From Candidatus Hydrothermarchaeales archaeon (GTDB lineage: Archaea; Hydrothermarchaeota; Hydrothermarchaeia; Hydrothermarchaeales; JAZGAD01): a stretch of 15,634 bases of DNA. The stretch covers positions 1 through 15,634 of the forward strand of contig JAZGAD010000036.1 of assembly GCA_036444275.1 (NCBI GenBank). Reading direction: 5' to 3'. Shown piece after piece: positions 1 to 14,761 of the stretch. The position numbers and the translations under genes were made by a program. The notes under the pieces are model-generated. The model had not been told where the DNA came from. It saw only the letters and a program-made list of their open reading frames with translations, and did no database searches. Every line of letters starts with the position of its first letter. The first letter of the stretch is position 1.

Positions 1-492
1 TATGTGGCCGACTCTTTCGTAGTTGTTGCCAAGTTGCTTGAGAACGTAGCCGAGTCAGGTGCGAAATTGCTTAACAGTACCTATGTGGACGATATTATAT
101 ACAAAAACGATAGGGTAAGCGGCGTGGTAGTAAACTGGTTCCCAATAACCCAGATGCCTAACTTCATCACCTGTATGGATCCCATAGCACTAGAGAGCAA
201 GATTGTGATAGATGCCACAGGGCACGAGGCTGACATAGCGAAGAAAGTAGCAGATGTCATAGGCATAGAGAAGGAGAAGATGGGGCCTAAAGCTATGAAC
301 GTAACAGAAGCTGAGAAGCTTGTGGTGGAGAACACCAAGCAGATTCATCCAGGACTAGTGATATGCGGAATGGCATCGGCCAGCTTCTTCAACCTACCAA
401 GGATGGGGCCTATATTCGGGGGTATGCTCCTTTCAGGAAAGAAAGCAGCTGAAATTACTCTGGAGCTAATAGAGAAGAAGGTCCTTGTATAA
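1..492 (+). CDS. thi4: Thi4-family adenosine diphosphate thiazole synthase, Cys-type, 5'-partial
   Basis: Frame is open from base 1 (YVADSF...). Thi4 motifs present: GVVVNW, ITCMDP (Cys codon 172-174), VIDATGH, PGLVICGM, PRMGPIFGGMLLSGKKAA. Stop TAA at 490-492. Confidence 0.95.
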   Translation, partial: YVADSFVVVAKLLENVAESGAKLLNSTYVDDIIYKNDRVSGVVVNWFPITQMPNFITCMDPIALESKIVIDATGHEADIAKKVADVIGIEKEKMGPKAMNVTEAEKLVVENTKQIHPGLVICGMASASFFNLPRMGPIFGGMLLSGKKAAEITLELIEKKVLV

Positions 493-523
493 TTGAAGGA
501 CAGATAAACAGAGAGGTAAGAAA

Positions 524-1015
524 TTGGTGTTGATATATAGTGCTCCCTTGGAGAGATGGGAGTGCGTCTATAAAAAGTGCGGCGCACAGTGCTGCATCGG
601 AGGCCGGGAAGTAACAGCTGGAGATATAAGGCGTATCTCCCAGGCAACTGGATACGAACCCGAGGTATTTACAGAGCTGAACGAAGAGAAAGGCCTATTC
701 AAGCTTAAAAGCAAGGGCGATAAGTGCTTCTTCCTCCGCGATGACTACGCATGCGAACTTCACGGGCCAGATGCGGAGCCTATCCTCTGCAGGATGTATC
801 CCTTCAAGTTCGACGGAATAATATACTCAGATGAGATCGTGCTGAGGGTTAAAGCTGTGGAAGACTGCCCGGGATTTGGATGCGGAGAGCAACTAGAGGA
901 GCGCTTTGAAGCCGGCATGGAAGAGCTTGGAAACAAGTTCGTGAGAGAGATAAAGGACTATCTCAAGTTGAAACATGAAGGACTGAGCATTAAAGAGATA
1001 CTGAAGGTGAAATAA
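524..1015 (+). CDS. YkgJ-family (CxxCxxCC, putative Zn/Fe-S chelating) cysteine cluster protein
   Basis: WECVYKKCGAQCC, DIRRI, CFFL...C.LH...P..CRMYPF and CPGFG follow the family pattern. Start is TTG 524 or GTG 527, after GAGAGGT at 511-517. Confidence 0.85.
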   Translation: MVLIYSAPLERWECVYKKCGAQCCIGGREVTAGDIRRISQATGYEPEVFTELNEEKGLFKLKSKGDKCFFLRDDYACELHGPDAEPILCRMYPFKFDGIIYSDEIVLRVKAVEDCPGFGCGEQLEERFEAGMEELGNKFVREIKDYLKLKHEGLSIKEILKVK

Positions 1016-1842
1016 TGGGGCTGACCCTGGACGAAATAAAAAGGTACAGCAGGCAGCTCGTGCTCCCAAATTTTGGAAGTGTCGAACAACATAAGTTGAA
1101 GAACGCCAAGGTAGCGATTACTGGAGCGGGCGGCTTGGGATGTCCTATAGCAACCTATCTCACGCTAGCTGGTGTAGGAAGAATACACATTATAGACATG
1201 GACGAGGTCGACCTGACAAACCTGAATCGGCAGTTCCTATACTTGCCAGAAGATGTAGGCAAACCTAAGGCAGAGTTAGCAGCTGAAAGGCTTACAGAGG
1301 TGAATCCAGAGATAGAGATAGAAGGAATAATGGAGAGGATAACCTATGATAACGCCTTCGACCTACTCAAGGGCTATGACGCTGTCGTAGATGGTACTGA
1401 CAATTTCCCTGTGCGGTACGCAGTGAACGACGCAGCAGTAGTAAACAATATTCCTCTTTTTCATGGCGCTGTACTCATGTACGAGGGCAGGGCAATGAGC
1501 ATAATCCCCAAGGAGACTGCATGCTTCAGGTGTGTCTTTCCAGCACCGCCGCCAGCTGGTATGGTGCCCACGTGCAGGGAAGCTGGAGTAGTCGGCTCCA
1601 TGGTTGGTTTAATCGGCTCTATACAGAGCATGGAGGCAATAAGGTACCTCGTCGGCCACGAGATAGCATTAAAGGACAGGCTTCTCATCGTAAACGGAGA
1701 TACCATGGACTTCCAGAAGGTACTTCTAAAGCGGAGGAGCGACTGCACTGCATGCGGCGATACCTTTGTTTCTAAGCCGGTGGATGAAGTATGTGAAACT
1801 AATGCCGAGATTCAAACAAGCCAAGTGGAAGCTAGAAGATGA
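1015..1842 (+). CDS. E1-like adenylyltransferase of the ThiF/MoeB/HesA family (UbaA-like), without a rhodanese domain
   Basis: RYSRQ, GAGGLG nucleotide-binding loop, D..VDLTNLNRQ, DGTDNF, Zn pairs CFRC and CTAC, PTCREAGVVG. The start overlaps the upstream stop (TAATG). Confidence 0.95.
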   Translation: MGLTLDEIKRYSRQLVLPNFGSVEQHKLKNAKVAITGAGGLGCPIATYLTLAGVGRIHIIDMDEVDLTNLNRQFLYLPEDVGKPKAELAAERLTEVNPEIEIEGIMERITYDNAFDLLKGYDAVVDGTDNFPVRYAVNDAAVVNNIPLFHGAVLMYEGRAMSIIPKETACFRCVFPAPPPAGMVPTCREAGVVGSMVGLIGSIQSMEAIRYLVGHEIALKDRLLIVNGDTMDFQKVLLKRRSDCTACGDTFVSKPVDEVCETNAEIQTSQVEARR

Positions 1843-2093
1843 CCTACGATATAACTGAGGAACTGGATTTAAGGGGTGAGAAGTGCCCCGATACATTCGT
1901 CTATACTAAGATAAAGCTGGAAGAGCTGGCTCACGACGGCGGAGGCATACTCAAGGTAATCGTAGATTTCCAGCCCGCGGTGGAGAACATTCCCAGAAGC
2001 TTGAAGGGCGAGGAGACAGCATACGAGTTGCTGGAGATAAAAAACGTCTCCCCTAACTACGAGCTTATAATCCGGGCTCCTTGCGTAGAATAA
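1839..2093 (+). CDS. tusA: TusA/SirA-family sulfur carrier protein
   Basis: 84 aa with LDLRGEKCPDTFVYTK (Cys codon 1884-1886) and LKVIVD..PAVENIP. ATGA overlap with the E1 gene. Confidence 0.9.
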   Translation: MTYDITEELDLRGEKCPDTFVYTKIKLEELAHDGGGILKVIVDFQPAVENIPRSLKGEETAYELLEIKNVSPNYELIIRAPCVE

Positions 2094-2096
2094 AAC

Positions 2097-2104
2097 TCTT
2101 TTTG
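2097..2104 (+). terminator. Possible weak oligo-T archaeal terminator after tusA
   Basis: TCTTTTTG immediately after the tusA stop, in a 47-nt intergenic gap. Confidence 0.25.
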
Positions 2105-2140
2105 ATGTTATTCCGGCATCGTTAAGCAAGGTTAGGGATC

Positions 2141-3067
2141 ATGAATAAGGACAAGGATAAGATCGTGAGGTCCTATCTGGGTATAAAATACAACCTGGTG
2201 GGTGTACATATATGGAAGAAGGGTGCTAAGCAGGACCCAGATAAGAAGCCCCAGAAGCGGATGCGCTTCTGCCAGGCGGTGAGAGATGCGTCTAATGGAC
2301 AAAGCTTAGATATAACACTAGATGACCTGGCATGTCCCAACGCTGAGGTAACCCTAGGATTCGATGAGCCTGTTTATGTAGATATCCAGCCGAGAATCAC
2401 GCCGGCTGAGACCGAAGTGGTTAGGGTGGCACCTCTAGATGAGACGCAGGATCCAGACGTGGTCCTCATGATACTCACACCGAAACAGACCATGGAAGCA
2501 GCATCCCTGTTAGATGGCTTGGAGGCAAAGTTTTCGGGAAATCTCGCTGTCTGCGGTGAGGCAACAGCAAAGCCCTATATGGACAAGAAGGCTAACATCA
2601 CCTTCCTATGCGGTGGCGCAAGAACCTTCGGGGACTTCAAGGAATCGGAACTCATCTTTGGAGCGCCGCCTGAGGTCTACGACAAGATGGCGGAGCGTAT
2701 AACTGCCCTTTCAAAGACATGTAGAGCACTATGCGGATGCAGAACCAGTGATATCTCGCCGCGCATAGTGAACACCTTCAAGAAGCTGGGCTTCGAGAAG
2801 GGGACAGATTACTTCTTCAGCAAGGTAGACGGATACAATGTTCGCATATACCTCAACAAGGACCTGCAGGGTAGGTTCAAATATGTTACTATACACCTGC
2901 CTATAAAGGGAGAGGTGAAGGTTAAACCAGGCTCACTCTTAGTGGTGAAGAAGAGGGGAAACTGGACAGATGTAGCGGTCACCTTTGGGATAGGCGAGGT
3001 AGTGGATATAAACACCGGCAAGGGATTGAAGGAAGCAATCCATGATATCATAGAAAAGGTCACATAG
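2141..3067 (+). CDS. DUF169-family protein with an additional ~115-aa C-terminal domain
   Basis: RFCQAV, LACPNA..LGF, PDVVLMILTPKQ, AVCGE...PY and LCGGAR......ELIFG match the DUF169 pattern of four conserved Cys. CRALCGC and an unassigned domain follow. Confidence 0.8.
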   Translation: MNKDKDKIVRSYLGIKYNLVGVHIWKKGAKQDPDKKPQKRMRFCQAVRDASNGQSLDITLDDLACPNAEVTLGFDEPVYVDIQPRITPAETEVVRVAPLDETQDPDVVLMILTPKQTMEAASLLDGLEAKFSGNLAVCGEATAKPYMDKKANITFLCGGARTFGDFKESELIFGAPPEVYDKMAERITALSKTCRALCGCRTSDISPRIVNTFKKLGFEKGTDYFFSKVDGYNVRIYLNKDLQGRFKYVTIHLPIKGEVKVKPGSLLVVKKRGNWTDVAVTFGIGEVVDINTGKGLKEAIHDIIEKVT

Positions 3068-3072
3068 GAAAC

Positions 3073-4266
3073 TTGAAAGAGAAGAGAGACGAAACGAGGA
3101 GTTTTATGGAGTATAGATACAAGGGCAAGGTAATAATAAACCCCCTGATGAGGGGCGGTATAATTCCAAAGGAGGTCCAGAAGAAGCTCTTTGAGGATGG
3201 CTGGACAGAGGTCGGGTACAACGTCTGCTTCGACTGCATCGAGGGTAGGTCGAGCTTGATAACGAAGCCAGCTGTAAAGTCCCATCTAGCCGAAATAGCT
3301 GGATTCTTCGGAGGCGATACCGCCGAGCATACCTTTGGATGTAGGAGCGCGCAGTTCGCAGCGATGAAGACTATCGCCCAATCCAGCCCAGAATCCAAGG
3401 TGGTTATAACTGATCCTAACAGCCACTATTCCACGAATATAGCAGCCGAGATGTGCGGCTTTGAGACAGTGGAGCCGCCCCACACCGGTTACCCTGAGTA
3501 CAAGGTTACCCCAGAGAAGTTTCAGGAAAAGATAGAGGATGTAGAGAAGAGCCATGGAAAGCCAGCCCTTGTGGTGGTGACGCATGCTGATCCGTACTAT
3601 GGGAACCTCGCACCGGTAAAGGAGATAGGGGAGATATGCGACGACAAAGAAATCCCCTACATGGTCAATGCTGCTTACACGGGTGGTGTGATTCCTATAG
3701 ACATGAAGAAATTCAACGCAGATTTCCTAACGCTATCCGCTCATAAATCCATGTCCTCAATAGCTCCGTTGGGATACCTAGTTACCACCTACGAATGGAG
3801 CAAGAGGGCCTTCGCCATATCAAAAGCCAAGCCTGATTGGACAGGTAGGGCCTTCGGGGAAAAGATCCCTAACCTCTTCGGATGCAGTATAGGCGGCTTA
3901 CCCCTGGTCAGCTCAATGCTTTCATTTCCCTATGTCAAAGAGCGCGTTAAGAACTGGGAGCAAGAAGTGAAGAGGATCGAAAGCTTCATCGATGCAATGG
4001 AAGATCTAGGAGACTTAATGCTATTAGGGGAGAGACCCCATAGACACCATCTCCTCCACTTTGAGACACCGGTGTTCTGGGAGATCTCAAAAAAGCATAA
4101 GCGCAAGGGATTTTTCTTAGCAAAGTCCATGATCAAGCGGGGCATAGTAGGCCTTCACAAGGGGTTGAGCAAGCACATAAAGCTCTCTATATACGGACTA
4201 AGCGATAGCGAGGTCGAAATGGTTCTAGACGCCTTTAGGGAAGTGATAGAGGAAAACTCTTCCTAG
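3073..4266 (+). CDS. pscS: O-phosphoseryl-tRNA:Cys-tRNA synthase (SepCysS) homolog, divergent, PLP-dependent
   Basis: INPLMRGG, GYNVCFDC (CxxC at 3226-3237), HYST, D.YYGN, NAAY, SAHKSM (PLP Lys at 3745-3747), LFGCS (third Cys at 3883-3885), HKRKGFFL...RGIVGL..GLSK..KLSIYGL. The true start may be ATG 3106, after GAGGAG. Confidence 0.9.
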   Translation: MKEKRDETRSFMEYRYKGKVIINPLMRGGIIPKEVQKKLFEDGWTEVGYNVCFDCIEGRSSLITKPAVKSHLAEIAGFFGGDTAEHTFGCRSAQFAAMKTIAQSSPESKVVITDPNSHYSTNIAAEMCGFETVEPPHTGYPEYKVTPEKFQEKIEDVEKSHGKPALVVVTHADPYYGNLAPVKEIGEICDDKEIPYMVNAAYTGGVIPIDMKKFNADFLTLSAHKSMSSIAPLGYLVTTYEWSKRAFAISKAKPDWTGRAFGEKIPNLFGCSIGGLPLVSSMLSFPYVKERVKNWEQEVKRIESFIDAMEDLGDLMLLGERPHRHHLLHFETPVFWEISKKHKRKGFFLAKSMIKRGIVGLHKGLSKHIKLSIYGLSDSEVEMVLDAFREVIEENSS

Positions 4267-4288
4267 TGGGAAATCTGTTTTTCGGACA

Positions 4289-4304
4289 CGGAAAATCTTT
4301 TTAC
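4289..4304 (+). promoter_or_regulatory. Putative BRE/TATA-like promoter for trkH-trkA-atpH
   Basis: CGGAAAATCTTTTTAC (purine-rich tract followed by a T/A-rich box) about 55-70 nt upstream of the trkH ATG. It is preceded by TGTTTTTC, a possible pscS terminator. Confidence 0.35.
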
Positions 4305-4357
4305 CAGAAGAAACACGACTCTAACATCTAACTTCGATAAGAGTTGGAGAAGTTGCT

Positions 4358-5824
4358 ATGATTCTCATCAGGATTACCAAAGAGGATCTGAAGGTGGTCC
4401 TCCGCGACCTTGGCGCCATTGTGTTCATAATAGGCTACACCCTCCTCGCACCCCTGATAGTAGCCTTCCTTTACGGCGAGAAGAATATGTACTTCGCGTT
4501 CCTTTACCCCAGTGCCTTCGCCATCTGGATCGGCTTCGTCCTCAAGAGGCTCTTCGCCAAGGCCGATGAGACCAAGACCCGGCATGCGGTGATCGTAGCT
4601 GGCTTGGCATGGCTCGTTGTATCTCTAATAGGGTCGTTCCCCTTTCAATACTATGGCGTGGGGTTTCTTGACAGCTATTTCGAGACCATGTCTGGCTTCA
4701 CCACCAGTGGGCTCACGTTGTTCCAGGACGTCGAGGTCCTGCCCAAGAGCCTCCTCTTCTGGAGGGCCTTCATCCAGTGGATAGGCGGCGTAGGCGTCAT
4801 AATGTTATTCCTCGTCGTCATCATCCAGAGGGGCACAGTAGCGGCGAGATTCTACACCGCCGAGGCGAGCGGTGAGAGGATAAGCCCGAGCATAACCAAA
4901 ACCATCAACTACATATGGAGGGTCTACATCGTCTACACCATCATCGGCATCCTCCTCTACTACATAGTGGGGATGAACCTATTTGACGCTGTATCCCATA
5001 CATTCACAGCCTTGGCTACTGCCGGCTTCAGCACTAAGAACGCCAGCATAGGCGCCTATAACAGCCTACCCATAGAGGCAGTATCTGTTCTCCTCATGTT
5101 CCTCGGCGGCACCAGCTTCTTGATATTGTATAGGCTCTTAAAGGGTGAGAAAACCAAGTTTTGGGAAAACCCCGAACTCATGGCCTACGTGGGGTTCATC
5201 TCGGTCTCGACGTTGTTCATATCGGTAAACCTTGTACTTAACGGATACCAAGGGATCGAGGCAATTAGACGGGCTATCTTCCACTCCGTCTCGGCCATAA
5301 CCACCACCGGCTTCTCCACTTCACAACTCGCAGCATGGCCGGACTTCTCGAAGGCTATTTTGCTGTTCCTCATGATATCCGGTGGGACCATGGGCTCAAC
5401 CGCAGGTGGCCTGAAGATCCTGAGGAGTGTAATACTCGTGAAACTCTCCTGGCACGAGATAGTGAGGGCATTGATACCAGAAAGGGCGGTGCTGAGCTTC
5501 AAGGTCAAGGATAAGGTGTTGGAGTACGAGGAGGTTTTACACGTCGCGAGCTTTTTCTTCTTATACACGGCGTTCGTGTTTACCAGCGGCTTGGTGATTA
5601 CCACCTTCGGATACGACTTCTTCGGCGCGGTGTTCACCGTCTCCTCAGCACAGGGTAACGTCGGCCTGCTCTCCGTCCCCACAGCGGTCTGGTACTCCAC
5701 GCCAGCTCCTGCGAAAGTTATATTAATACTAAATATGTGGATAGGTAGGTTAGAGATATTCCCGGCCTTAGCGTTGCTGGGGTCCATAATCGAAAGCATA
5801 CGGAGGACACGACCATCTACGTAA
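4358..5824 (+). CDS. trkH: Trk system potassium uptake membrane protein TrkH
   Basis: Multi-TM protein with four pore loops: FETMSGFTTSG, TALATAGFS, SAITTTGF, SAQGNVG. Also QWIGGVG, GSTAGGLK and GRLEIFP. Confidence 0.96.
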   Translation: MILIRITKEDLKVVLRDLGAIVFIIGYTLLAPLIVAFLYGEKNMYFAFLYPSAFAIWIGFVLKRLFAKADETKTRHAVIVAGLAWLVVSLIGSFPFQYYGVGFLDSYFETMSGFTTSGLTLFQDVEVLPKSLLFWRAFIQWIGGVGVIMLFLVVIIQRGTVAARFYTAEASGERISPSITKTINYIWRVYIVYTIIGILLYYIVGMNLFDAVSHTFTALATAGFSTKNASIGAYNSLPIEAVSVLLMFLGGTSFLILYRLLKGEKTKFWENPELMAYVGFISVSTLFISVNLVLNGYQGIEAIRRAIFHSVSAITTTGFSTSQLAAWPDFSKAILLFLMISGGTMGSTAGGLKILRSVILVKLSWHEIVRALIPERAVLSFKVKDKVLEYEEVLHVASFFFLYTAFVFTSGLVITTFGYDFFGAVFTVSSAQGNVGLLSVPTAVWYSTPAPAKVILILNMWIGRLEIFPALALLGSIIESIRRTRPST

Positions 5825-6468
5825 TCATCCTCGGAGCAGGACGGGTTGGAAGGCACCTGGCGAGTCTCTTGCTGGAGCGAAAGCATGAGGTGGCCATTAT
5901 AGAGAAGGACAAGGATAAATGCCAAGAACTTTCACAAGAGATGGATCTCCTGGTGGTCAATGGGAATGGTACCCAACCTAAGAACCTAGAAGATTTGAAT
6001 GTAAAGAACTGCAATGTATTTGTTGCTGCAACTGGCAAAGACGAGGTAAACCTTCTCTCATGCCTAGTAGCTAAGAACATGGGTGTGAAGAGTGTTATAG
6101 CCAGGGTAGGCAACCCAGAGTACCAAGATGTGTTTAAAAAATTGGGCATAGACCATGTTATCAGCCCAGAGGTGACTGCTTCTACATACATAGAAAAACT
6201 AATTATGCGCCCGGGTGTTGCGGACTTAGCAATCCTGGGACGGTCTGACGTGGAGATCCTCGAATTCTTGGTCACAGAAGATTCTTATATATTCGGGAGG
6301 GAAGTAGGCAGTATTAAATCTAATGGATTCCTCTTTATAGCTATCTACAAGAACAGCGATCTAATCATACCAACTGGTAAAACAATGTTCAAGAAGGATG
6401 ACAGGGTCCTCGTACTCCTAAAGACCGAGATGGTAAAGGAGGTAGAGAGGCTATTCATGGCACCCTAG
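5815..6468 (+). CDS. trkA: Trk system regulatory subunit TrkA (single RCK_N + RCK_C), start extended upstream of the ORF track
   Basis: In-frame sequence from 5815 reads (I/M)YVIILGAGRVGRHLA, the Rossmann GxGxxG. Then VAIIEKD, GNGT, FVAATGKDEVN, VIARV and VISPE. GGAGG at 5802-5806 lies 8 nt before ATC 5815. Confidence 0.93.
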   Translation: MYVIILGAGRVGRHLASLLLERKHEVAIIEKDKDKCQELSQEMDLLVVNGNGTQPKNLEDLNVKNCNVFVAATGKDEVNLLSCLVAKNMGVKSVIARVGNPEYQDVFKKLGIDHVISPEVTASTYIEKLIMRPGVADLAILGRSDVEILEFLVTEDSYIFGREVGSIKSNGFLFIAIYKNSDLIIPTGKTMFKKDDRVLVLLKTEMVKEVERLFMAP

Positions 6469-6485: not shown

Positions 6486-6803
6486 ATGGTTACCGATGTT
6501 CTAACAGAGGTTAAAAGGATAGAAACCGAGGCAGAGAACTTAATAGAGAAGGCTGAGGAGAGGCAGAGAGCCCTCGTAGAAGAAGCCGGTAAGAAAGCTG
6601 AAAAGATAGTTGAAGACGCAAGGAAAAAGGCACTGGATGAGGGCAAGAAGTTGGCGGAGAAGGCCAGAGATGAGGGAGAGAAGGAAGCTATAGCAATAGC
6701 CGAGGCATGTGAGAAGGAAATCATATCTCTAAAGAAAAAAGGAAGCAAAAATCTCGAAAAGGCAGCCAACGCCATAGTGGATGCTATAATACGAACTGAG
6801 TGA
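6486..6803 (+). CDS. A/V-type ATP synthase peripheral stalk subunit H (Vma10/G-like), stand-alone
   Basis: 105-aa E/K/A-rich coiled coil. It begins DVLTEVKRIETEAENLIEKA and ends KNLEKAANAIVDAI, typical of archaeal subunit H. Low complexity limits certainty. Confidence 0.7.
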   Translation: MVTDVLTEVKRIETEAENLIEKAEERQRALVEEAGKKAEKIVEDARKKALDEGKKLAEKARDEGEKEAIAIAEACEKEIISLKKKGSKNLEKAANAIVDAIIRTE

Positions 6804-6805
6804 TT

Positions 6806-6831
6806 GAAGGCCTTCCAAGGGCTACGCCCTT
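6806..6831. terminator. Palindrome plus hairpin at the convergence of atpH and oppF; possible terminator
   Basis: GAAGGCCTTC (6806-6815) is a perfect palindrome. AAGGGC-TAC-GCCCTT (6817-6831) forms a 6-bp stem spanning the oppF stop. Confidence 0.3.
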
Positions 6832-7649
6832 CTAACATGTGGATTAGGCACCGGTATTGCAGAAAGCAGAGTCTTTGTATAGGGATGCTTTGGATTCTCG
6901 AATATTTCCTGTGTGGGGGCTGTTTCTATGATCCTTCCGTTTCGCATTATAGCTACTCTATCAGAGATGTGCCTGATTACCCCCAGGTTATGCGCTATGA
7001 AGAGGTAGGCGAGACCATACTCCTTCTGCATGTCTGCAAAGAGATTCAGGATCTGGGCTTGAATTGAAACATCAAGAGCGCTTACAGGCTCGTCAGCCAC
7101 CAAGAGCTTTGGACTTAACGCTAGGGCCCTAGCTATTCCAATACGCTGCTTTTGGCCCCCGCTGAATTCATGTGGATAACGGGATGCATACTCGGCCTCA
7201 AGGCCCACTTTCTCTAGCAACTCTTTAACTTTCTCTAGCCTCTCTTCATCGTCTCGCACACCGTGTATGAGGAGAGCTTCCCCTATGCATTCCCCTACAG
7301 TCATCCTTGGATCTAGGGAAGCCTGTGGGTCCTGGAATACCATTTGCACTTCTTTCCTATACTGCCTCAACGTCGCACCCTGGAAGGAGCGTATATCTTC
7401 TCCCCTGAAGAGAACCTGCCCGCTGGTGGGTTCCTCAAGACGCAGGATCACCTTACCCAAAGTTGTCTTACCACATCCAGATTCCCCCACTAGACCGAGG
7501 GTCTCCCCTTCACGTACGTATAAGGATACCCCTTCCACAGCCGTTATATCACCCGCGTGTTTAGACAGCAGCCCGGTGGTTACGGGATAGTACTTCTTCA
7601 CATCCCGGATTTCCAGCAATTTATCCCTATCTCTATCCTTGTCCCTCAA
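6822..7649 (-). CDS. oppF: Oligopeptide/dipeptide/nickel ABC transporter ATP-binding protein (OppF/DppF type)
   Basis: GLVGESGCGKTT, QMVFQDP, YPHEFSGGQKQR, VADEPVSALDVSIQAQ, HNL and HPYT. Confidence 0.95.
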   Translation of the reverse strand: MRDKDRDRDKLLEIRDVKKYYPVTTGLLSKHAGDITAVEGVSLYVREGETLGLVGESGCGKTTLGKVILRLEEPTSGQVLFRGEDIRSFQGATLRQYRKEVQMVFQDPQASLDPRMTVGECIGEALLIHGVRDDEERLEKVKELLEKVGLEAEYASRYPHEFSGGQKQRIGIARALALSPKLLVADEPVSALDVSIQAQILNLFADMQKEYGLAYLFIAHNLGVIRHISDRVAIMRNGRIIETAPTQEIFENPKHPYTKTLLSAIPVPNPHVRRA

Positions 7650-8655
7650 CTCTAGCTGCCTCCGATGCTTTCTTTACTTCCCTAGAATCCCAGAGATGAC
7701 AAGCCGTGCTGTGCTCTGATGCTACAAAGGCCTCTTCAGGTTTGACTCTAAAGCATATATCCCGGGCGAATGAACACCTAGTGTGAAATACGCATCCCTT
7801 CGGCGGGTCGATGAGACTGGGTATAGTTCCAGGGATCGGTGTAAGCTTCCTCCCACCGTTGTCAGATATGTCAGGCACACAATTTAGGAGGCCTATAGTG
7901 TAGGGATGCCTTGGGTTCTCGAATATCTGGAACACGCTCCCCCTCTCCATTACCTTGCCTGCGTACATGACAACTACACGGTCAGCTATCTCAGCCACTA
8001 TGCCAAGGTCATGGGTTATGAATAGCAAGGACATGCCTCTCTCCCTCTTAAGGTCCATCAAGAGCCCGAGGAACTGAGCCTGAGTTGTTACGTCCAGGGC
8101 CGAAGTGGGCTCGTCGGCGATCAGGATTTCTGGGTCGCAGCTCAGAGCCATGGCAATCATGACCCTCTGATTCATTCCGCCAGAGAATTCATGAGGATAA
8201 CTATCCAGCCTATCCCTGGCTGAAGGAATCCCTACCTTTTCCAGCAGGCATATTGCTTTCTTCCGTGCTTCTTTCTTACCAATCCCCAAGTGGAGCTGCA
8301 TCTGCTCGATTATCTGATCCCCAACAGTGAAGATTGGATTAAGGGACTCCGTAGGATCCTGGAATATCATGGATATCCTCATACCCCTGACACTCTGCAG
8401 TTGCCTAGAGGAGTACTCCCGCAAGTCATTGCCATGGAAGAATATCCCGCCTTCCACTATCCTTCCAGGTGCATCTACTAAACCCAAAATAGAAATGGCT
8501 GTAACAGTCTTCCCTGAGCCGCTCTCTCCAACCAAACATAGGACCTTGCCCTCTTCGAGGTTGAAGCTCACCCCGTCAACGGCCTTCACAGTTCCCCTGC
8601 GAGTGAAGAAATATGTCTTAAGATTTTTTACCTCTAAAATATTCACCTTGCTCAC
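7633..8655 (-). CDS. oppD: Oligopeptide/dipeptide/nickel ABC transporter ATP-binding protein (OppD/DppD type)
   Basis: GESGSGKT, MIFQDP, YPHEFSGGMNQR, IADEPTSALDVTTQAQ, HPYT and the C-terminal GCVFHTRC...C...ACH motif. Confidence 0.95.
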   Translation of the reverse strand: MSKVNILEVKNLKTYFFTRRGTVKAVDGVSFNLEEGKVLCLVGESGSGKTVTAISILGLVDAPGRIVEGGIFFHGNDLREYSSRQLQSVRGMRISMIFQDPTESLNPIFTVGDQIIEQMQLHLGIGKKEARKKAICLLEKVGIPSARDRLDSYPHEFSGGMNQRVMIAMALSCDPEILIADEPTSALDVTTQAQFLGLLMDLKRERGMSLLFITHDLGIVAEIADRVVVMYAGKVMERGSVFQIFENPRHPYTIGLLNCVPDISDNGGRKLTPIPGTIPSLIDPPKGCVFHTRCSFARDICFRVKPEEAFVASEHSTACHLWDSREVKKASEAARVEGQG

Positions 8656-8666
8656 TTCACCTCACC

Positions 8667-9743
8667 TCAGAGATCGCTCCTTGGGTCAAAGGCATCCCTA
8701 AGTCCGTCACCGAGGAAATTAAAGGATAGCACTGTTAGGAATAGCATTATCCCTGGTTCCACTGCCACCCACCAGAGTGTATCTAAGCTATCCTGTCCTG
8801 CATTTAGTATCCTGCCCCAGCTTGCTACTGCTACGTCACCAAGGCCTATGAAGCTGAGGGCTGCCTCGGCTAGTACCACGCCTGGTATGGACAGGGTGGC
8901 TATAACTATAAGGGTACTCATTACATTGGGTATGAGATGGCGGAAAATGATCCTGGTATCGCTTGCCCCCAATGCCTTGCTGGCTAAGATGAAGTCCCGG
9001 GTGCGTAGAGATAGGACCTCGCTCCTTACGAGTCTAGCTGTGCCAGTCCAGCCTGTCAGCCCGATTATTATGATTATATAGGTGAGGTTTGAGCCGAAAA
9101 GAAAGACAATTAACACCAGGAGTAGAAAGAAGGGGAACGTCATCATTATGTCAGTGAACCTCATCAAGGCGTTGTCCACTATACCACCGAAGTAGGCCGA
9201 GGTTACACCGATGATAGTGCCTATCAGTATGGCTATTCCAGTAGCTATTAAACCTACTTGCAGAGATACCCTCGCCCCAGAGACAAGCATGGCCAACATG
9301 TCCCGCCCCTTGTCATCTGTACCTAGAATGTGCCTCCATGTACCAGGAGTTTCCGTGAGTGTAAATGCGCCTGTACTCTGATCGTAGACCGACTGTGTTA
9401 TTGAGAAACCAATAGGTGGGAGGTTCTTTTCATCGAAATTCACAAGGTTGGGATCTAAAGTGAAGAACGGCCCTATCACGGCTATAAGGACAAGTAGTAG
9501 TATGAAGCACAGGCCGAAGACAGCCAATTTATTCCGCTTGGTTCGATCCCAGTAGTAACGGGTCAGTCTCCTATTGGCATACAGGGGATGTATTACGTAG
9601 AAGCCTATAACGGCCCCGAAAAAGGCATAGAAATAATGCAATGCATCAAAGAGGTCCGTCTCCAAGTAGAAATCAGCTATCAAGCTAGCTAGGATGAACG
9701 CTAGTAGAACGGCAAATATGCTGTTTTTTGACGGCGACTTCAT
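8667..9743 (-). CDS. oppC: Peptide ABC transporter permease (OppC/DppC type)
   Basis: HILGTDDKGRD, GARVSL, DNALMRFTD and the EAA-like loop FILASKALGAS..RIIFRHLIPN. Ends GDGLRDAFDP. Confidence 0.95.
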   Translation of the reverse strand: MKSPSKNSIFAVLLAFILASLIADFYLETDLFDALHYFYAFFGAVIGFYVIHPLYANRRLTRYYWDRTKRNKLAVFGLCFILLLVLIAVIGPFFTLDPNLVNFDEKNLPPIGFSITQSVYDQSTGAFTLTETPGTWRHILGTDDKGRDMLAMLVSGARVSLQVGLIATGIAILIGTIIGVTSAYFGGIVDNALMRFTDIMMTFPFFLLLVLIVFLFGSNLTYIIIIIGLTGWTGTARLVRSEVLSLRTRDFILASKALGASDTRIIFRHLIPNVMSTLIVIATLSIPGVVLAEAALSFIGLGDVAVASWGRILNAGQDSLDTLWWVAVEPGIMLFLTVLSFNFLGDGLRDAFDPRSDL

Positions 9744-9754
9744 TTTCTATCTAT

Positions 9755-10753
9755 CTACTCATATTTTATTCTTGGGTCAATGAAGGTATAGGTGATGTCA
9801 GTGATGAGGTTGAAGAGAAGGGTTACAAAGGCTCCAATAAGTGTGACAGCGACGACGACGGCGTAGTCACTCGCAAGGATGGCGTTAAAGGATATCCTAC
9901 CCAATCCAGGGATCCCGAATATGATCTCGGTGAGATAGGCACCGCCAAAGACTATGCTGCTCAGGTCGAACATTATTATAGTGACTATCGGGAGGATAGC
10001 GTTCCTGAAGACATGCCTAAGAATCACCACTCTCTCAGGCAGCCCTTTCGCCCTAGCCGTTCTGACGAAATCCTTTCTCAGGTTGTCCAGTGTAGCTGAC
10101 CTAGAGTACCTGCTGTAGCCGGCCATCATGCCAGTTCCTAGTGTTATAACTGGTAGAAACAACGCCTTGAGATTGGCCAGAGAGAACAGAGGCAGTGAGG
10201 TATCATAGAACGTCTTAAACCAGCCCAATCTAACCGAGAACACGAGGATCAGCATTATACCCAGCCAGAAATTGGGTATGGAGATGCCTATAAAGGAGAA
10301 TACGGTGGTTATATAGTCTGTCTTGGTGTACTGCTTAACCGCCGAATAAATTCCTATTCCTACTCCAACGAGGACTGCGAAGATCGTGCTAAGAAGGATA
10401 AGCTGGAAGGAGTAGATCCAGTGTATTTTAATAAGATCTATCACAGGCAGCGAGGTACTAATCGACCAGCCCCAATCACCATGTAAGAGATTAGACATAT
10501 AGTTGATGTACTGTTCGTACATTGGTCTATCCAAGCCATACCTAGCTTCTATGGCTGTCTGAATCTGGGCGACATCCTGTGCCTTGCCCGATGCAGCGAT
10601 GTTGGCTAGGTATTTATCAGCTGGAGAGGTAGGCCCTATTCTGAGCAGGATGAAGGTAATAGTGAGGACACCCCAAGCTATAATAACTGCGTAGATTAGC
10701 CTCTTCAGTATGTAATTCCGCATAGAGCCCTTTCTAGTGACCAATACACCCAC
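9755..10753 (-). CDS. oppB: Peptide ABC transporter permease (OppB/DppB type)
   Basis: YILKRL, YGLDRP..EQY, GDWG.S, SIPNFW, DFVRTARAKGL...RHVFRNA and DPRI. The start may be ATG 10723 rather than GTG 10753. Confidence 0.95.
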   Translation of the reverse strand: MGVLVTRKGSMRNYILKRLIYAVIIAWGVLTITFILLRIGPTSPADKYLANIAASGKAQDVAQIQTAIEARYGLDRPMYEQYINYMSNLLHGDWGWSISTSLPVIDLIKIHWIYSFQLILLSTIFAVLVGVGIGIYSAVKQYTKTDYITTVFSFIGISIPNFWLGIMLILVFSVRLGWFKTFYDTSLPLFSLANLKALFLPVITLGTGMMAGYSRYSRSATLDNLRKDFVRTARAKGLPERVVILRHVFRNAILPIVTIIMFDLSSIVFGGAYLTEIIFGIPGLGRISFNAILASDYAVVVAVTLIGAFVTLLFNLITDITYTFIDPRIKYE

Positions 10754-10799
10754 CGCACTAAATTCGGATATCCTAACTTATTACTTTGCAACCTGCAGG

Positions 10800-12581
10800 C
10801 TACTTCTCAAACCGCCACAGATGGTAATTATAGCCAATGCTTATACCTGGTTCTATGCCCTTAACCTCCTCCTGGAAGCCCGAATTCGCTGCAGGGTAAA
10901 CAAGGAAATCCACTGGCAGATCCGCTGATAACAGCAACGATAACTCGCCGTATATATCTCTCCTCACCGCTTCGTCGAGGGCTTCTTTGGATTTCACACT
11001 GGCGAACAATTCATCCACCCTTTCATTGGAATAACCATACATGTTAAGCCCGCCGTCTGTACCGAAGAAGGTGACACTTCCAGAAGGCGCAAGGATATCT
11101 GTTCCGAATCCCATAACACATAAGTCCCATGGGTTCTCGCTCACTGCCTCTGGCCCGCTGTTGAAGCTCGGTGGTTGGTCTGTACCAGGGATCTTGTTCT
11201 TGAGGTATTGATTGAGCTCTGTAGGCCAAGGAAGGAATTTTAGCTCAATTTCTACCCCTATGTCAGACAATTCTTGCTTTATCAAGAAGGCAATGGACTC
11301 CCTAACCTTGTTTCCAGAGTTGGCTATAAGCGACAACCGTAGGGGTTCCCCGTCTTTGTCCAATATTTTTCCATTCATCTTAGGATACCCAGCGTTATCC
11401 AACATTTCTACTGCTTTTTCTTTGTCGTAGAAGGGTTCCACGCCGTATTTTTTCAACCCCTCATCGATGTACCATGGCGAAGGTTTGGGTATGAAGCTAA
11501 ACGCCGGATCCCCAAATCCAAGATAGACGGATTGAACGATGGCGTCCTTCCCTATACTCATGGCAAAGGCCTCCCTCACCTCACGCTTCTTAAAGCCCTC
11601 CCATCCGTTTTTCCTGAAATTCCAGAGGAGGGCAGTATATCCTCCGGTAGGGACAGTGTATACATTTATACCCTCCAGCTCCTTGAACTTCCTGACCTGA
11701 AGTGGGTCTATGAGTGTTGATGTTATGTCTCCTGCTTCAAAAGCCGCATGCCTAGCAGCCGGCGTGCCGAAGATCTTAACTATGTACTTTTCAAAGAAAG
11801 GTGCACCTGTCTCCTGGCCTAGGTAATAATCTGGATTGCGCTCCAACACGAATTTGTCATTTCTTATCCATTCTACGAAGCGATAGGGACCGAGATTGCC
11901 AGTATAGGTTAGGTTATTCAGCTCAGGTGCTTGGGTAAAAGCGTCTGGGTCCCCTTCGTATTTCTCAACTATATGCTTAGGATAGACCCAAAAATCTGTC
12001 ACAGTATACAGGAACTCCGGCTCCACTGTCTGCCGCACGAATCTATATGTGGTCTTATCCACTGCTTCCAAGTTAACGAAGACTTTTTCTCCATCTACTG
12101 TCTCCTGGTAGTCATCCTTATAGTTAAAGGGCAGCCAATCTGATAAGAGGATGTTCTTATAAGTGTAGACGAAGTCCTCTGCTGTTACCTGCTTACCATC
12201 GCTCCACATCAGGTCATCCCGCAGGATAAGAGTATAGGTCAACCCGTCCTCCGACACCCTGATTGGTTCTGCCAGCCATCTCAGCAGGATATTCAAATCG
12301 TTATCGTAGACTACAAGACCATCCATGGTGAGGCCTATGTATTCACGAGAGGCGTTGTCAGCTACCAGCGCCCAATTAAGGGTCTCTGCGTCACCAGCTG
12401 ATGTGCCGGAAATGTAGGTGCCCTTGACCTCGTGTAAGGATTTTGAAAGAGGTAGCGTCTGAGTTGGCTTAGCAGCTTCTCTCTGTAAGCACCCGCTTAA
12501 TCCAAAACTAGCTCCAATACCGGCGTACAGACCAGTCCTAGCACATAGTCTTAGGAAGTCCCGTCTTCGCATCGGATGCAT
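10800..12581 (-). CDS. oppA: Peptide/nickel ABC transporter substrate-binding protein (family 5), Tat lipoprotein
   Basis: RRRDFL twin-arginine motif and LSGC lipobox. SEDGLTYTLILRDDLMWSDGKQVTAEDFVYT is the family 5 signature. Also GPYRFVEW...LERNPDYY. Start at 12581 or 12572. Confidence 0.95.
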   Translation of the reverse strand: MHPMRRRDFLRLCARTGLYAGIGASFGLSGCLQREAAKPTQTLPLSKSLHEVKGTYISGTSAGDAETLNWALVADNASREYIGLTMDGLVVYDNDLNILLRWLAEPIRVSEDGLTYTLILRDDLMWSDGKQVTAEDFVYTYKNILLSDWLPFNYKDDYQETVDGEKVFVNLEAVDKTTYRFVRQTVEPEFLYTVTDFWVYPKHIVEKYEGDPDAFTQAPELNNLTYTGNLGPYRFVEWIRNDKFVLERNPDYYLGQETGAPFFEKYIVKIFGTPAARHAAFEAGDITSTLIDPLQVRKFKELEGINVYTVPTGGYTALLWNFRKNGWEGFKKREVREAFAMSIGKDAIVQSVYLGFGDPAFSFIPKPSPWYIDEGLKKYGVEPFYDKEKAVEMLDNAGYPKMNGKILDKDGEPLRLSLIANSGNKVRESIAFLIKQELSDIGVEIELKFLPWPTELNQYLKNKIPGTDQPPSFNSGPEAVSENPWDLCVMGFGTDILAPSGSVTFFGTDGGLNMYGYSNERVDELFASVKSKEALDEAVRRDIYGELSLLLSADLPVDFLVYPAANSGFQEEVKGIEPGISIGYNYHLWRFEK

Positions 12582-12658: not shown

Positions 12659-13531
12659 CTATCGCACTATCTTGGCTATGTCTATCTCTAGTATATCTTC
12701 TGCGCCCTTATCCTTGAGCTTGGGTATAATCACGTTAACGTCCTTCTTCTCCACAACGGTCTCGATGGCATAGTAGCCGGTGCCATATAATTTGGATACA
12801 GTAGGGGTCTTCATGGCTGGCAGTGCTTTCACCACGTCCTCGAGTTTCTCCTCCGGGATGTTCATACTCAAGAGCACCTTTCCCCTGGCCTCTATTACAC
12901 CTAGCAATAGGGTGCGGAGCTCCTCCATGGCCTTCCGCTTCTCCTGATCCTGCCAGGACTTCTTGTTTGCCAAGAGCTTGGTACTGGATTCAAGGATGGT
13001 GCCCACGATCTTTAGGCGATTCTTTCTCAGGGTGTCCCCTGTCTCAGTCAAGTCTATCACGACATCCATCAATTCAGGTACTTTTGCCTCCGATGCGCCA
13101 TAGGAGTAGCGGATATCCACAGGTATCCCGAGGTCCTCGAAGTAGCGCCTCGTGAGATTGGGGTATTCCGTAGTAACCCTGCTCCCGGGCTTTATATCTT
13201 TAGCCTCTTTGATATCTGAATCCTCTGATACAGCTGCAACCAGACGAACTATGCCTGCGCCCTTCTTGCTGTAAGGCAAGTCAGCTATAACCTCAACGTC
13301 GGCACCACTTTCCAATATCCAATCCCATCCCGAAATGCCTAGGTCGAAGTATCCCTCAGTCACATAGCCCGGTATCTCCTGAGGACGTAGTATCTTTACA
13401 GCAGATATCCTAGGGTCAGCGATGCTAGGGTTATAATCCCTGAAGCCCTTCACCACCTCTAAGTCCGCTTGCTTAAAGAGCAACAGCGTCTGTTCTTCTA
13501 AACTTCCCTTAGGCAGAGCCAATTTCAACAT
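12659..13531 (-). CDS. hisG: ATP phosphoribosyltransferase, long form with C-terminal regulatory domain
   Basis: LKLALPKGSL, LRPQEIP.YV..G..DLGISG.DW..E, TEYPNLT, SYGASEAK, DLTETGDTLRKNRL, LPAMKTPTV and GAEDIL. Confidence 0.97.
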   Translation of the reverse strand: MLKLALPKGSLEEQTLLLFKQADLEVVKGFRDYNPSIADPRISAVKILRPQEIPGYVTEGYFDLGISGWDWILESGADVEVIADLPYSKKGAGIVRLVAAVSEDSDIKEAKDIKPGSRVTTEYPNLTRRYFEDLGIPVDIRYSYGASEAKVPELMDVVIDLTETGDTLRKNRLKIVGTILESSTKLLANKKSWQDQEKRKAMEELRTLLLGVIEARGKVLLSMNIPEEKLEDVVKALPAMKTPTVSKLYGTGYYAIETVVEKKDVNVIIPKLKDKGAEDILEIDIAKIVR

Positions 13532-13535
13532 CAGG

Positions 13536-13853
13536 TCAACCTCTGACTTCCTCTACTTCTTCAACATACATTAGCGGATAATCATCATTTATATATTTCA
13601 TCCTGCACTTGCACTTAGCGGTATTAACGCGAGTAGTCACAGCTACATTCAACATTTCTCCACTGAGGGCTATGTATCCATATTTATTCGTCTTTCCAAG
13701 ACTTATCTTTACATTAACATCTTCTAGGGACTTCCTGCTTTTCTTGCTGATCGGCGTGCCTATAAACTGAGGATAAACAGTTGCTAACTTTATGCCGCAC
13801 TCGAAAATACTCCTCTCCCTGCCTGAGACAGTAGATGCCTTGTCTAAAACCAA
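13536..13853 (-). CDS. mptD: Archaeal dihydroneopterin aldolase (MptD/DUF381) homolog, apparently degenerate and possibly a pseudogene
   Basis: RERSIFECGIKLA.VY.QFIGTP, GY..LSGEML.V and DYPLMYVEEV. The conserved YHQF reads YPQF, and the segment between SLE and DV.VKI is missing. Confidence 0.8.
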   Translation of the reverse strand: MVLDKASTVSGRERSIFECGIKLATVYPQFIGTPISKKSRKSLEDVNVKISLGKTNKYGYIALSGEMLNVAVTTRVNTAKCKCRMKYINDDYPLMYVEEVEEVRG

Positions 13854-14758: not shown

Positions 14759-14761
14759 CTT

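Follow-up and report, generated by a model that had tools for sequence, protein, structure and literature searches.

A long DUF169 protein linked to SepCysS in a conserved archaeal gene cluster: a candidate route of sulfur incorporation

In Mycobacterium tuberculosis, the CysO-CysM-MoeZ-Mec system makes cysteine by means of a ThiS/MoaD-like carrier, an E1 enzyme, and a pyridoxal phosphate (PLP) enzyme. Persulfide sulfur is handed on in Escherichia coli through the IscS-TusA-TusBCD-TusE-MnmA relay, and TusA also has a role in the synthesis of the molybdenum cofactor. In Streptomyces, homocysteine synthesis by MetM, MetO, and MoeZ has reportedly been described by Hasebe et al. in 2024, and for Methanosarcina, Rauch and Perona are said to have proposed that COG1900/NIL-ferredoxin and MA1715 proteins bring sulfur to SepCysS and to homocysteine synthesis. 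According to the accessible parts of PMC13759103 and PMC12172450, the MetM/MetO/MoeZ route forms homocysteine from O-phosphohomoserine with a ThrC-like enzyme, a sulfur-carrier protein, and an E1. That Cys-type ("suicide") Thi4 genes cluster with ThiS, ThiF, and sulfur-relay genes has likewise been published, as far as the available portion of PMC13325395 goes. Here, we analyzed a window of 15,634 nucleotides (the whole stretch examined, comprising the first 15.6 kb of contig JAZGAD010000036.1, or C36) from a Candidatus Hydrothermarchaeales archaeon, whose metagenome-assembled genome (MAG) is 81% complete and divided into 61 contigs. The window opens with a row of genes for candidate sulfur-handling proteins that ends with SepCysS, the enzyme that converts Sep-tRNA(Cys) to Cys-tRNA(Cys), and that includes a long-form protein of the DUF169 family.

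The row consists of six co-oriented open reading frames (ORFs) on the + strand, and their coordinates reproduced the gaps of 31, -1, -4, 47, and 5 nt given by an earlier sequence-only reading of this DNA. Profile scans against Pfam and NCBIfam were used to assign the window proteins to families. The first ORF (1-492, open at its 5' end) encodes the C-terminal 163 residues of a Thi4 thiazole synthase (PF01946, 125.6 bits, profile positions 92-235); since the contig starts inside this gene, its upstream gene context is missing. It is followed by a CxxCxxCC-family (YkgJ-like) protein (524-1015; PF03692, 26.4 bits against a cut-off of 23), an E1 adenylyltransferase of the ThiF/MoeB/UbaA type without a rhodanese domain (1015-1842; PF00899, 273.4 bits), a TusA-family sulfur carrier (1839-2093; PF01206, 55.1 bits, cut-off 28.6), the long-form DUF169 protein (2141-3067; PF02596, COG2043, 110.8 bits, cut-off 27), and SepCysS (3073-4266; NF006810, 388.4 bits against 301; TIGR02539, 359.8 bits against 365.25). 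The last of the gaps holds for the ORFs as listed, but the TTG start of SepCysS at 3073 seems doubtful: GAGGAG stands 5 nt upstream of an ATG at 3106, and homologues align from residue 12-15; therefore, the distance between DUF169 and SepCysS is more likely 38 nt than 5.

The pair formed by long DUF169 and SepCysS is the conserved core of this cluster and its strongest linkage signal. In a wide survey with a DUF169 alignment query and one genome per species, SepCysS lay at most 1 kb from long DUF169 at 67 of the 80 loci; these represent at least seven lineages and both gene orders (26 with DUF169 then SepCysS, 40 with SepCysS then DUF169, and 1 convergent). The loci surveyed came from Hydrothermarchaeota, Altiarchaeota, Bathyarchaeia, Methanoperedenaceae, Methanocellales, Methanosarcinaceae, and Hadarchaeota, and from MAGs labelled Nitrospirae, Caldisericum, or bacterium; the Methanoperedenaceae account for about 35 of the 80 and are far from independent. 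In seven of the 13 loci without a near SepCysS, the contig stops on the side in question; the six true lacks are five Hydrothermarchaeota in which SepCysS lies elsewhere and one partial Chloroflexi match. As counted by tblastn in 7-kb flanks, a procedure that may miss divergent small proteins, the neighbours in the 80 loci were TusA (27), E1 (25), ThiS (21), a ThrC-like gene (19), the CxxCxxCC gene (17), and Thi4 (2). SepRS was found near the pair at a single locus (L102; G, C, and L numbers denote genomes, contigs, and loci), a second match at L128 being weak and partial.

Closer to the window, we compared SepCysS loci in 34 genomes of the Hydrothermarchaeales, that of the window and those of 33 relatives. 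DUF169 lay at most 1 kb from SepCysS in 19 of them, 2 were cut by contig ends, and the remaining 13, without adjacency, comprise 9 with a SepCysS of the same clade and 4 with one of another clade (G004, G007, G010, and G015). The arrangement E1-TusA-DUF169-SepCysS recurs across families of the order, and nine genomes have the full set ThrC-like-ThiS-CxxCxxCC-E1-TusA-DUF169-SepCysS. The conservation in other genomes on which the sequence-only reading had staked its case was thus found for E1-TusA-DUF169-SepCysS and for the DUF169-SepCysS pair, but not for Thi4, which is part of the cluster in three genomes only.

The association also holds at the level of gene content. We examined 151 Halobacteriota genomes, an even sample of the phylum of a Methanoperedens genome, and separated long-form DUF169 (at least 145 bits, spanning positions from about 5 to 285) from short-form DUF169 (below 110 bits, N-domain only). 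The long form occurs in 14 of these genomes and the short form in many more; SepCysS is present in 124, and none of the 27 genomes without SepCysS has long DUF169. Judged by coordinates, SepCysS stands directly beside long DUF169 in 13 of the 14 long-form genomes, the position of SepCysS in the 14th not being listed. SepCysS occurs in two or three copies in several Halobacteriota genomes, the linked one being that of the class of about 495-530 bits; the linked SepCysS is the sole copy in one Methanoperedens, one Bathyarchaeia, and one Nitrospirae genome. In a maximum-likelihood tree of 68 SepCysS sequences from both surveys (28 linked and 40 unlinked, with one partial row dropped), a branch with 97% support in the Shimodaira-Hasegawa-like approximate likelihood ratio test (SH-aLRT) separates 33 unlinked sequences from 35 that include all 28 linked ones and 7 unlinked ones. 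The linkage label changes 4 times on this tree, compared with a mean of 22 after shuffling, and none of 500 shuffles was as low; as kin share labels, this result describes clustering and is no count of independent events.

To place the six genes in a wider context, we mapped the window proteins by tblastn to the SepCysS surroundings of 40 relatives and scanned the neighbouring ORFs against Pfam and NCBIfam. Relatives have two more genes upstream of the CxxCxxCC gene: a ThrC-like gene of about 415 residues that starts with a zinc ribbon and scores 312.5 bits with the threonine synthase model TIGR00260, and a ThiS-like gene of 89 residues that ends in SGG and matches SAMP1/MoaD models. No Gly-Gly-ended substrate of the ThiS/MoaD type for the E1 was found within the window, and the upstream ThiS-family gene of relatives has such an end. 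The full order in relatives is ThrC-like, ThiS, Thi4 (where present), CxxCxxCC, E1, TusA, DUF169, and SepCysS, and a LarE-like gene often precedes the ThrC-like/ThiS pair. The six genes of the window had been taken as one module; the full unit in relatives is longer, and the ThiS-like carrier and the ThrC-like PLP enzyme are likely key players in it.

Rearranged versions of this unit occur elsewhere. Loci L058 and L059 have E1-TusA-SepCysS-DUF169 followed by a thioredoxin-like gene, L106 and L107 have ThiS-E1-DUF169-SepCysS-TusA-ThrC-like, and in L148 (Hadarchaeota) a JAB-TusA-E1-ThiS-ThrC-like row is divergent from SepCysS-DUF169. In loci of the Altiarchaeota type, TusA-DUF169-SepCysS sits among sulfate-assimilation genes, and its flanks hold ThiI, thioredoxin, TauE, PAPS reductase, ATP sulfurylase, and a small sulfite reductase. 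In G004, ThrC-like-ThiS-CxxCxxCC-E1 is followed directly by a SepCysS of another clade, without TusA or DUF169. A small thioredoxin-like gene comes directly after the SepCysS/DUF169 pair in L058, L102, and L105. Several further observations concern these loci. In the L102 row (L102:7001-11316, in a Nitrospirae-labelled MAG), DUF169 and SepCysS are followed by a thioredoxin-like gene and by a SepRS that has a ThrRS editing domain at its N-terminus (PF08915 and PF01409), and by its gene content the row is a compact tRNA-dependent cysteine unit in a bacterial MAG; the fusion of SepRS to a ThrRS editing domain is already described in the accessible part of PMC8762117. In a MAG labelled Caldisericum sp. 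(L054/L088), an archaeal-type cluster lies on a 10.8-kb contig, with a SepCysS 69% identical to that of the window and with sulfate-assimilation genes inserted between E1 and TusA; this could be a mis-binned archaeal contig or a transfer. NifS (TIGR03402; 581 bits in L049, which shares its record with L046) and NifU stand beside the SepCysS end in L016, L026, L028, and L046, and an FeS_assembly_P gene stands there in L047 and L028.

Compared with CysO-CysM, the archaeal cluster as found in relatives has a similar set of parts: a Gly-Gly-ended carrier, an activating E1, and a PLP enzyme of the kind that swaps the phosphate of an O-phospho amino acid for carrier sulfur. A JAB protease gene, as in the CysO-CysM set, is present in the Hadarchaeota locus L148, but not in the Hydrothermarchaeales cluster. 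In contrast to CysO-CysM, the candidate acceptor would be tRNA-bound phosphoserine on SepCysS, a fold-type I enzyme, rather than free O-phosphoserine on CysM, and in contrast to the set with MoeZ, the archaeal E1 lacks a rhodanese domain, TusA is encoded by a separate, overlapping gene, and two extra Cys-rich proteins are present. As in the E. coli relay, a Cys-Pro TusA may serve as persulfide carrier between a sulfur source and a user enzyme; unlike in that relay, there is no TusBCD or TusE, TusA is coupled to E1 by the 4-nt overlap, and the sulfur would pass to DUF169, SepCysS, or a ThiS-like carrier. The accessory proteins are also of different families from the COG1900 and MA1715 proteins of Methanosarcina.

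The likeness to MetM-MetO, which comes from gene make-up, lies in a fold-type II, ThrC-like PLP enzyme next to a sulfur carrier, a pair found upstream in relatives, together with an E1, as set against the available parts of the published accounts; the archaeal cluster differs in adding the CxxCxxCC protein, TusA, DUF169, and SepCysS, and the ThrC-like/ThiS pair was not found in the assembly of the window. With the SepRS-SepCysS-SepCysE transsulfursome of class I methanogens, as presented in the accessible portions of PMC8762117 and PMC5424206, it shares SepCysS and an accessory gene beside it. Unlike SepCysE, however, long DUF169 is Cys-rich, has no detectable sequence likeness to solved chains, goes with other SepCysS clades, and rarely has SepRS nearby. 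As in the clusters of PMC13325395, to judge by the portion available, the Thi4 of the window is of the Cys type, and the Thi4 of relatives comes directly after thiS and near E1; unlike in those clusters, SepCysS, TusA, DUF169, and CxxCxxCC proteins are neighbours here and are named nowhere in the main text of that paper, and DUF6775, the commonest neighbour there, was not seen. The kinds of component are already known, as TusA relays, E1/ThiS thiocarboxylate systems such as CysO/CysM and MetO/MetM, SepCysS accessory proteins, and Cys-type Thi4 with ThiS/ThiF (PMC13325395). We found no text on the DUF169-SepCysS pair, or on TusA or E1 in this role, although supplementary figure S2 of PMC5424206, which covers SepCysS loci, may already draw some of these neighbours.

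Conserved cysteine motifs had been noted in all six proteins, and alignments to orthologues or solved structures bore this out. The long DUF169 protein has an N-domain (residues 1-193) with four family-wide cysteines, a flexible Cys loop with the motif ALCGC (residues 194-202, nt 2720-2746), and a C-terminal domain (residues from about 203 to 308) with a secretion-chaperone/YbjN-like fold; short members have neither the loop nor the C-terminal domain, which is about 110 residues long. Among 28 long-form sequences, Cys157, Cys198, and Cys200 are invariant, and Cys44, Cys65, and Cys138 are kept in at least 90%; C44, C65, C138, and C157 are also kept in eight short DUF169 proteins from Halobacteriota genomes. 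The four-Cys N-domain would fit a family-wide metal or iron-sulfur site, or a redox centre. The short proteins of Halobacteriota (L181-L188) are about 230-250 residues long and have an insertion of about 22 residues after a GLxE motif, without the ALCGC loop or C-terminal domain. The AlphaFold2 (AF2) model is a confident one, with pLDDT scores of 90.1 over the entire protein, 92.3 for the N-domain by itself, and below 50 in the ALCGC loop. The modelled C-terminal domain matched 4g6t (VIA Z 8.1, root-mean-square deviation 3.7 over 99 residues) and SycT (Foldseek, 1.9e-4), and it is predicted to be a protein-binding fold of the type III secretion chaperone/YbjN type. An E2-like C-terminal partner for the E1 was considered and rejected, as rows for UEV, E2, Atg3, and Cap2 reached Z values of only 4.2-5.6, a common level for this tool.

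No solved relative of the N-domain was found, the best VIA-align hit having Z 4.3 (ketosynthase/thiolase halves, at noise level) and Foldseek giving none against the PDB at E ≤ 0.001; by sequence, the long protein matched no solved PDB chain at E up to 1, SepCysE entries included. A feature search of the ESM Atlas returned at best 0.82, for GGGtGRT families, which is within noise, and a complex prediction for DUF169 with TusA gave 0.33 against 0.44 for the control, which is no evidence on binding either way. Long-form DUF169 proteins make up a small subfamily, with 787 members at E ≤ 0.001 and 53 at E ≤ 1e-30 among 1.84 billion representatives. In the literature, DUF169 is an occasional neighbour of SepRS (available part of PMC8762117), stands beside TauE in Desulfovibrio G20 (PMC4001038), and is a weak STRING partner of YedE (PMC5322559); no function is assigned to it in these three sources.

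SepCysS itself had been described as divergent, which overstated the case: the protein is about 5 bits below one curated cut-off (TIGR02539), many orthologues of the same order score 341-375 bits, and it aligns over its full length to the solved SepCysS 2e7i. Its residues 20-394 align to Methanocaldococcus jannaschii SepCysS (3wkr), and its motifs VCFDC, AHKSM, and FGCS match VCDYC, GHKSM, and LGCT of 3wkr, which hold the PLP lysine and three active-site cysteines. The roles of SepCysS active-site residues are reportedly treated by Liu et al. in a paper of 2012. SepCysS is present as a sole copy in the assembly, which also encodes SepRS (TIGR00470, 721.5 bits, C53) and CysRS (556.3 bits, C7), and the protein is therefore an ordinary working enzyme that probably serves cysteine biosynthesis. 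The idea that the window encodes a second, diverged paralogue with another function was rejected, given the single copy in the assembly and the retention of all catalytic residues. In a relative (G016:C69:1756-2892, L036), the SepCysS match contains two TAG codons, which could be pyrrolysine codons, lie outside the true gene, or be errors; the accessible part of PMC5424206 reports PylRS in archaea of the marine benthic group MBG-E.

Along its whole length the E1 can be aligned to E. coli ThiF (1zfn, residues 7-250), with both CxxC zinc pairs (cfrc/cyrc and ctac/cpvc) and Cys187, the cross-over-loop cysteine (tCreagv/nCrtagv), matching. It is the sole MoeB-type E1 found in the assembly, and the genome also encodes MoaD-MoaE (a ThiS-family gene of the MoaD type beside moaE) and a SAMP2-like/TtuA pair; because these need an E1, the E1 of the window is probably shared rather than dedicated. 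Another ThiF-family gene (G000:C12, about 23330-25130; L074:3331-5128) encodes 481 residues and is preceded by a Prok-E2_E gene; this set looks like prokaryotic ubiquitin-like conjugation, separate from the sulfur E1 of the window. The TusA start overlaps the E1 stop by 4 nt, and Cys16-Pro17 and the motif D-x2-G-E-x-C-P-x-T-F are invariant in 12 orthologues. This TusA is one of three in the genome, the most divergent of them, and a separate paralogue. As for the other two, in G000:C12:7828-9165 a class-V aminotransferase (PF00266, 248.2 bits) has a canonical TusA (84.7 bits) immediately upstream, and the two are a likely TusA/cysteine-desulfurase pair; a third TusA domain occurs on C6 in an open frame of 650 residues. 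The idea of a dedicated module is thus supported in part, by the functional link between the genes and by TusA as a separate paralogue, and the probably shared E1 limits it.

The CxxCxxCC protein has eight invariant cysteines (C14, C19, C23, C24, C68, C77, C89, and C115) in an alignment of 10 orthologues (A4), and its gene travels with the ThrC-like/ThiS part of the cluster. The conserved Cys of Thi4 is the sulfur donor, and methanococcal His-type enzymes are sulfide-dependent. In alignments, the counterpart of Cys58 (TCMDP) of the window protein is a Cys in Arabidopsis THI1 (1rp0, SCMDP) and a His in the methanococcal 4y4m and 4y4n, which classifies this Thi4 by its residues as Cys type. It corresponds to residues 103-262 of the full-length L048 orthologue, with about the first 100 residues missing (the N-terminal part that binds flavin or nicotinamide adenine dinucleotide). 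Thi4 is a local insertion: apart from the window, just two related genomes (L041/L048 and L055/L092) have it within the cluster, where it lies between thiS and the CxxCxxCC gene. The coupling of cysteine to thiamine synthesis that had been suggested for this locus is therefore a local feature, with Thi4 at 2 of the 80 loci.

On these grounds, we proposed a conserved archaeal cluster for sulfur incorporation, with its 3' part in the window: an E1/TusA/ThiS relay would feed two PLP enzymes, and long DUF169 would be the sulfur-delivery partner of SepCysS. We hold this to be the most likely reading, with even odds of being right. Starting from the observed gene identities, conserved residues, linkage, and clade pattern, we infer each sulfur-transfer step by homology or context. 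Sulfur from sulfide, a cysteine desulfurase, or sulfite reductase would form a persulfide on Cys16 of TusA. E1 would adenylate the C-terminal glycine of the ThiS-like carrier, and TusA, in place of the rhodanese domain of MoeZ/Uba4, would then give a protein thiocarboxylate on the carrier. The ThrC-like enzyme would use this thiocarboxylate and O-phosphohomoserine to make homocysteine, as MetM does with MetO. Long DUF169 would take sulfur from TusA or the carrier via its four-Cys N-domain (possibly an iron-sulfur or metal site) and the ALCGC loop, dock by its chaperone-like C-terminal domain, and load the active-site Cys of SepCysS, which would convert Sep-tRNA(Cys) to Cys-tRNA(Cys). Both PLP enzymes, ThrC-like and SepCysS, would swap a phosphate leaving group for sulfur, and the Cys-type Thi4, where inserted after thiS, may draw on the same carrier. 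A stronger version, which we put forward tentatively and regard as possible though doubtful, is that a distinct SepCysS lineage is fed not by free sulfide but by a relay of a ubiquitin-like protein thiocarboxylate and TusA through a dedicated, Cys-rich long DUF169, possibly an iron-sulfur protein, so that cysteine and homocysteine synthesis share one E1-activated carrier. Given the ThiS-like and ThrC-like genes upstream in relatives, E1, TusA, and the CxxCxxCC protein would count no less as members of a thiocarboxylate-dependent system like MetM/MetO.

Several observations weigh against SepCysS being fed by this relay through long DUF169. In nine Hydrothermarchaeales genomes with a SepCysS of the same clade, SepCysS lies elsewhere, and in four of the five such genomes that were searched DUF169 was found, in each case within the ThrC-like-ThiS-CxxCxxCC-E1-TusA-DUF169 block or its visible part; as DUF169 stays with the thiocarboxylate block when SepCysS relocates, it could serve the thiocarboxylate system instead. 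Methanoperedens and its relatives have only the SepCysS-DUF169 pair, with no match to E1, TusA, or ThiS within 7 kb. Long DUF169 is present in only 14 of the 124 SepCysS-bearing Halobacteriota genomes, so most SepCysS enzymes work without it. The N-domain has no solved relative that would back any chemistry, and the E1 is probably a housekeeping enzyme for MoaD and the SAMP2-like carrier. Finally, no cluster-type orthologue of the ThiS-like or ThrC-like gene was found in the 81%-complete assembly of the window, only a ThrC of 42% identity on C11; because the contig breaks inside Thi4, this absence may be an assembly gap or real.

The best-surviving alternative, which we rate as unlikely, is that two pathways are placed in one co-regulated operon: a thiocarboxylate-dependent homocysteine synthesis, perhaps including DUF169, and a SepCysS that works on free sulfide, with E1 and TusA not feeding SepCysS. 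The block from ThrC-like to DUF169 is intact where SepCysS has moved away, NifS and NifU beside the cluster in four loci resemble a general sulfur island, and SepCysS works with sulfide in vitro. The trio of E1, ThiS, and ThrC-like protein is, moreover, a known self-sufficient system (MetM/MetO/MoeZ), on the strength of the available parts of its descriptions. Against this, in Methanoperedens, Bathyarchaeia, Methanocellales, and bacterial MAGs, DUF169 tracks SepCysS with no E1, TusA, or ThiS; E1-TusA-SepCysS-DUF169 occurs alone, without the ThrC-like and ThiS genes, in L058, L059, and family f9; and the linkage tracks particular SepCysS clades.

Long DUF169 could instead be a redox or repair partner, which would reduce a SepCysS disulfide or persulfide after turnover, or keep a SepCysS cluster intact, together with thioredoxin-like proteins. 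Its six conserved cysteines, including the CGC loop, would suit this function, as would the thioredoxin-like genes directly beside the pair in L058, L061, L102, and L105, and the title of Liu et al. (2012), as cited in the accessible part of PMC5424206, names sulfur transfer by SepCysS via a disulfide and a persulfide. The frequent company of TusA, E1, and ThiS (27, 25, and 21 of the 80 loci) and of sulfate-assimilation genes points to supply instead, and we think a redox function quite unlikely, although the present evidence does not distinguish repair from donation and the two roles are mutually compatible. Less probable still is an adaptor without sulfur chemistry that, like SepCysE, would hold SepCysS to SepRS or to tRNA and channel Sep-tRNA. 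The predicted protein-binding, chaperone-like C-terminal fold would fit such an adaptor, DUF169 is an occasional SepRS neighbour (PMC8762117, in the part available), and DUF169-SepCysS-thioredoxin-SepRS forms one unit in L102; however, neither the four N-domain cysteines kept across the family nor the invariant ALCGC loop would be needed by a pure scaffold, just 1 of the 80 loci has SepRS near the pair, and a sequence comparison at E up to 1 matched DUF169 to none of the solved chains, those of SepCysE among them. That the gene order is a chance juxtaposition without shared function can be practically dismissed, because the arrangement is conserved across genomes, with the two genes adjacent at 67 of the 80 loci, which span many lineages and show two gene orders, and because the linkage label is clustered on the SepCysS tree.

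The remainder of the window consists of spacers and neighbouring genes. A spacer of 47 nt (2094-2140) separates TusA from DUF169 and has a T5 run at 2099-2103, just past the TusA stop; the spacer past SepCysS (4267-4357) has T5 runs at 4278-4282 and 4298-4302 and is probably the end of the cluster unit, ahead of trkH. Oligo-T tracts can serve as archaeal terminators. A consensus scan, bacterial in type and ill-suited to archaea, found no stem-loop terminator or promoter-like site in 2094-2140, and the same scan returned nothing of note for promoters and terminators in 1-4500. After SepCysS, on the same strand, TrkH (PF02386, 211.9 bits) and a short TrkA (TrkA_N and TrkA_C) occupy 4358-6468. 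The order SepCysS-TrkH-TrkA is repeated in G001 (L018), the one genome of the same family, and Trk genes are otherwise not conserved beside the cluster; the genome of the window has a second TrkH/TrkA pair on C28. A lone ORF of 105 residues (6486-6803) resembles subunit H of A/V-type ATP synthases, lies below both cut-offs (51.8 against 107 and 43.9 against 48.5 bits), and stands outside any ATP synthase operon. On the - strand, 6822-12581 encodes a five-gene ABC importer of the Opp/Dpp/Nik type (two ATPases, two permeases, and a family-5 binding protein), whose first ATPase gene is overlapped by a + strand ORF of 87 residues (6804-7067) that is probably no gene. The last part of the window (12659-15634, - strand) encodes a HisG of the long form with its C-terminal domain, an archaeal-type dihydroneopterin aldolase of 105 residues (PF04038), an ORF of 304 residues without a family match, and a DUF515 protein truncated by the window end.

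Ever since SepCysS was discovered, it has been unclear which sulfur donor the enzyme uses physiologically, and the linkage described here makes this question directly testable with a short list of partners: long DUF169, TusA, E1, and the ThiS-like carrier. DUF169, a family without a known role, gains a first functional context and a defined set of cysteines. As SepRS and SepCysS are used in genetic-code engineering, a sulfur-loading helper could have practical value. Taken together, the results suggest a common sulfur-activation system for the synthesis of cysteine and of homocysteine in several uncultured anaerobic archaea; a SepCysS fed by thiocarboxylate or TusA would, if true, be the archaeal, tRNA-bound counterpart of the mycobacterial CysO-CysM system and would provide the first function for DUF169.

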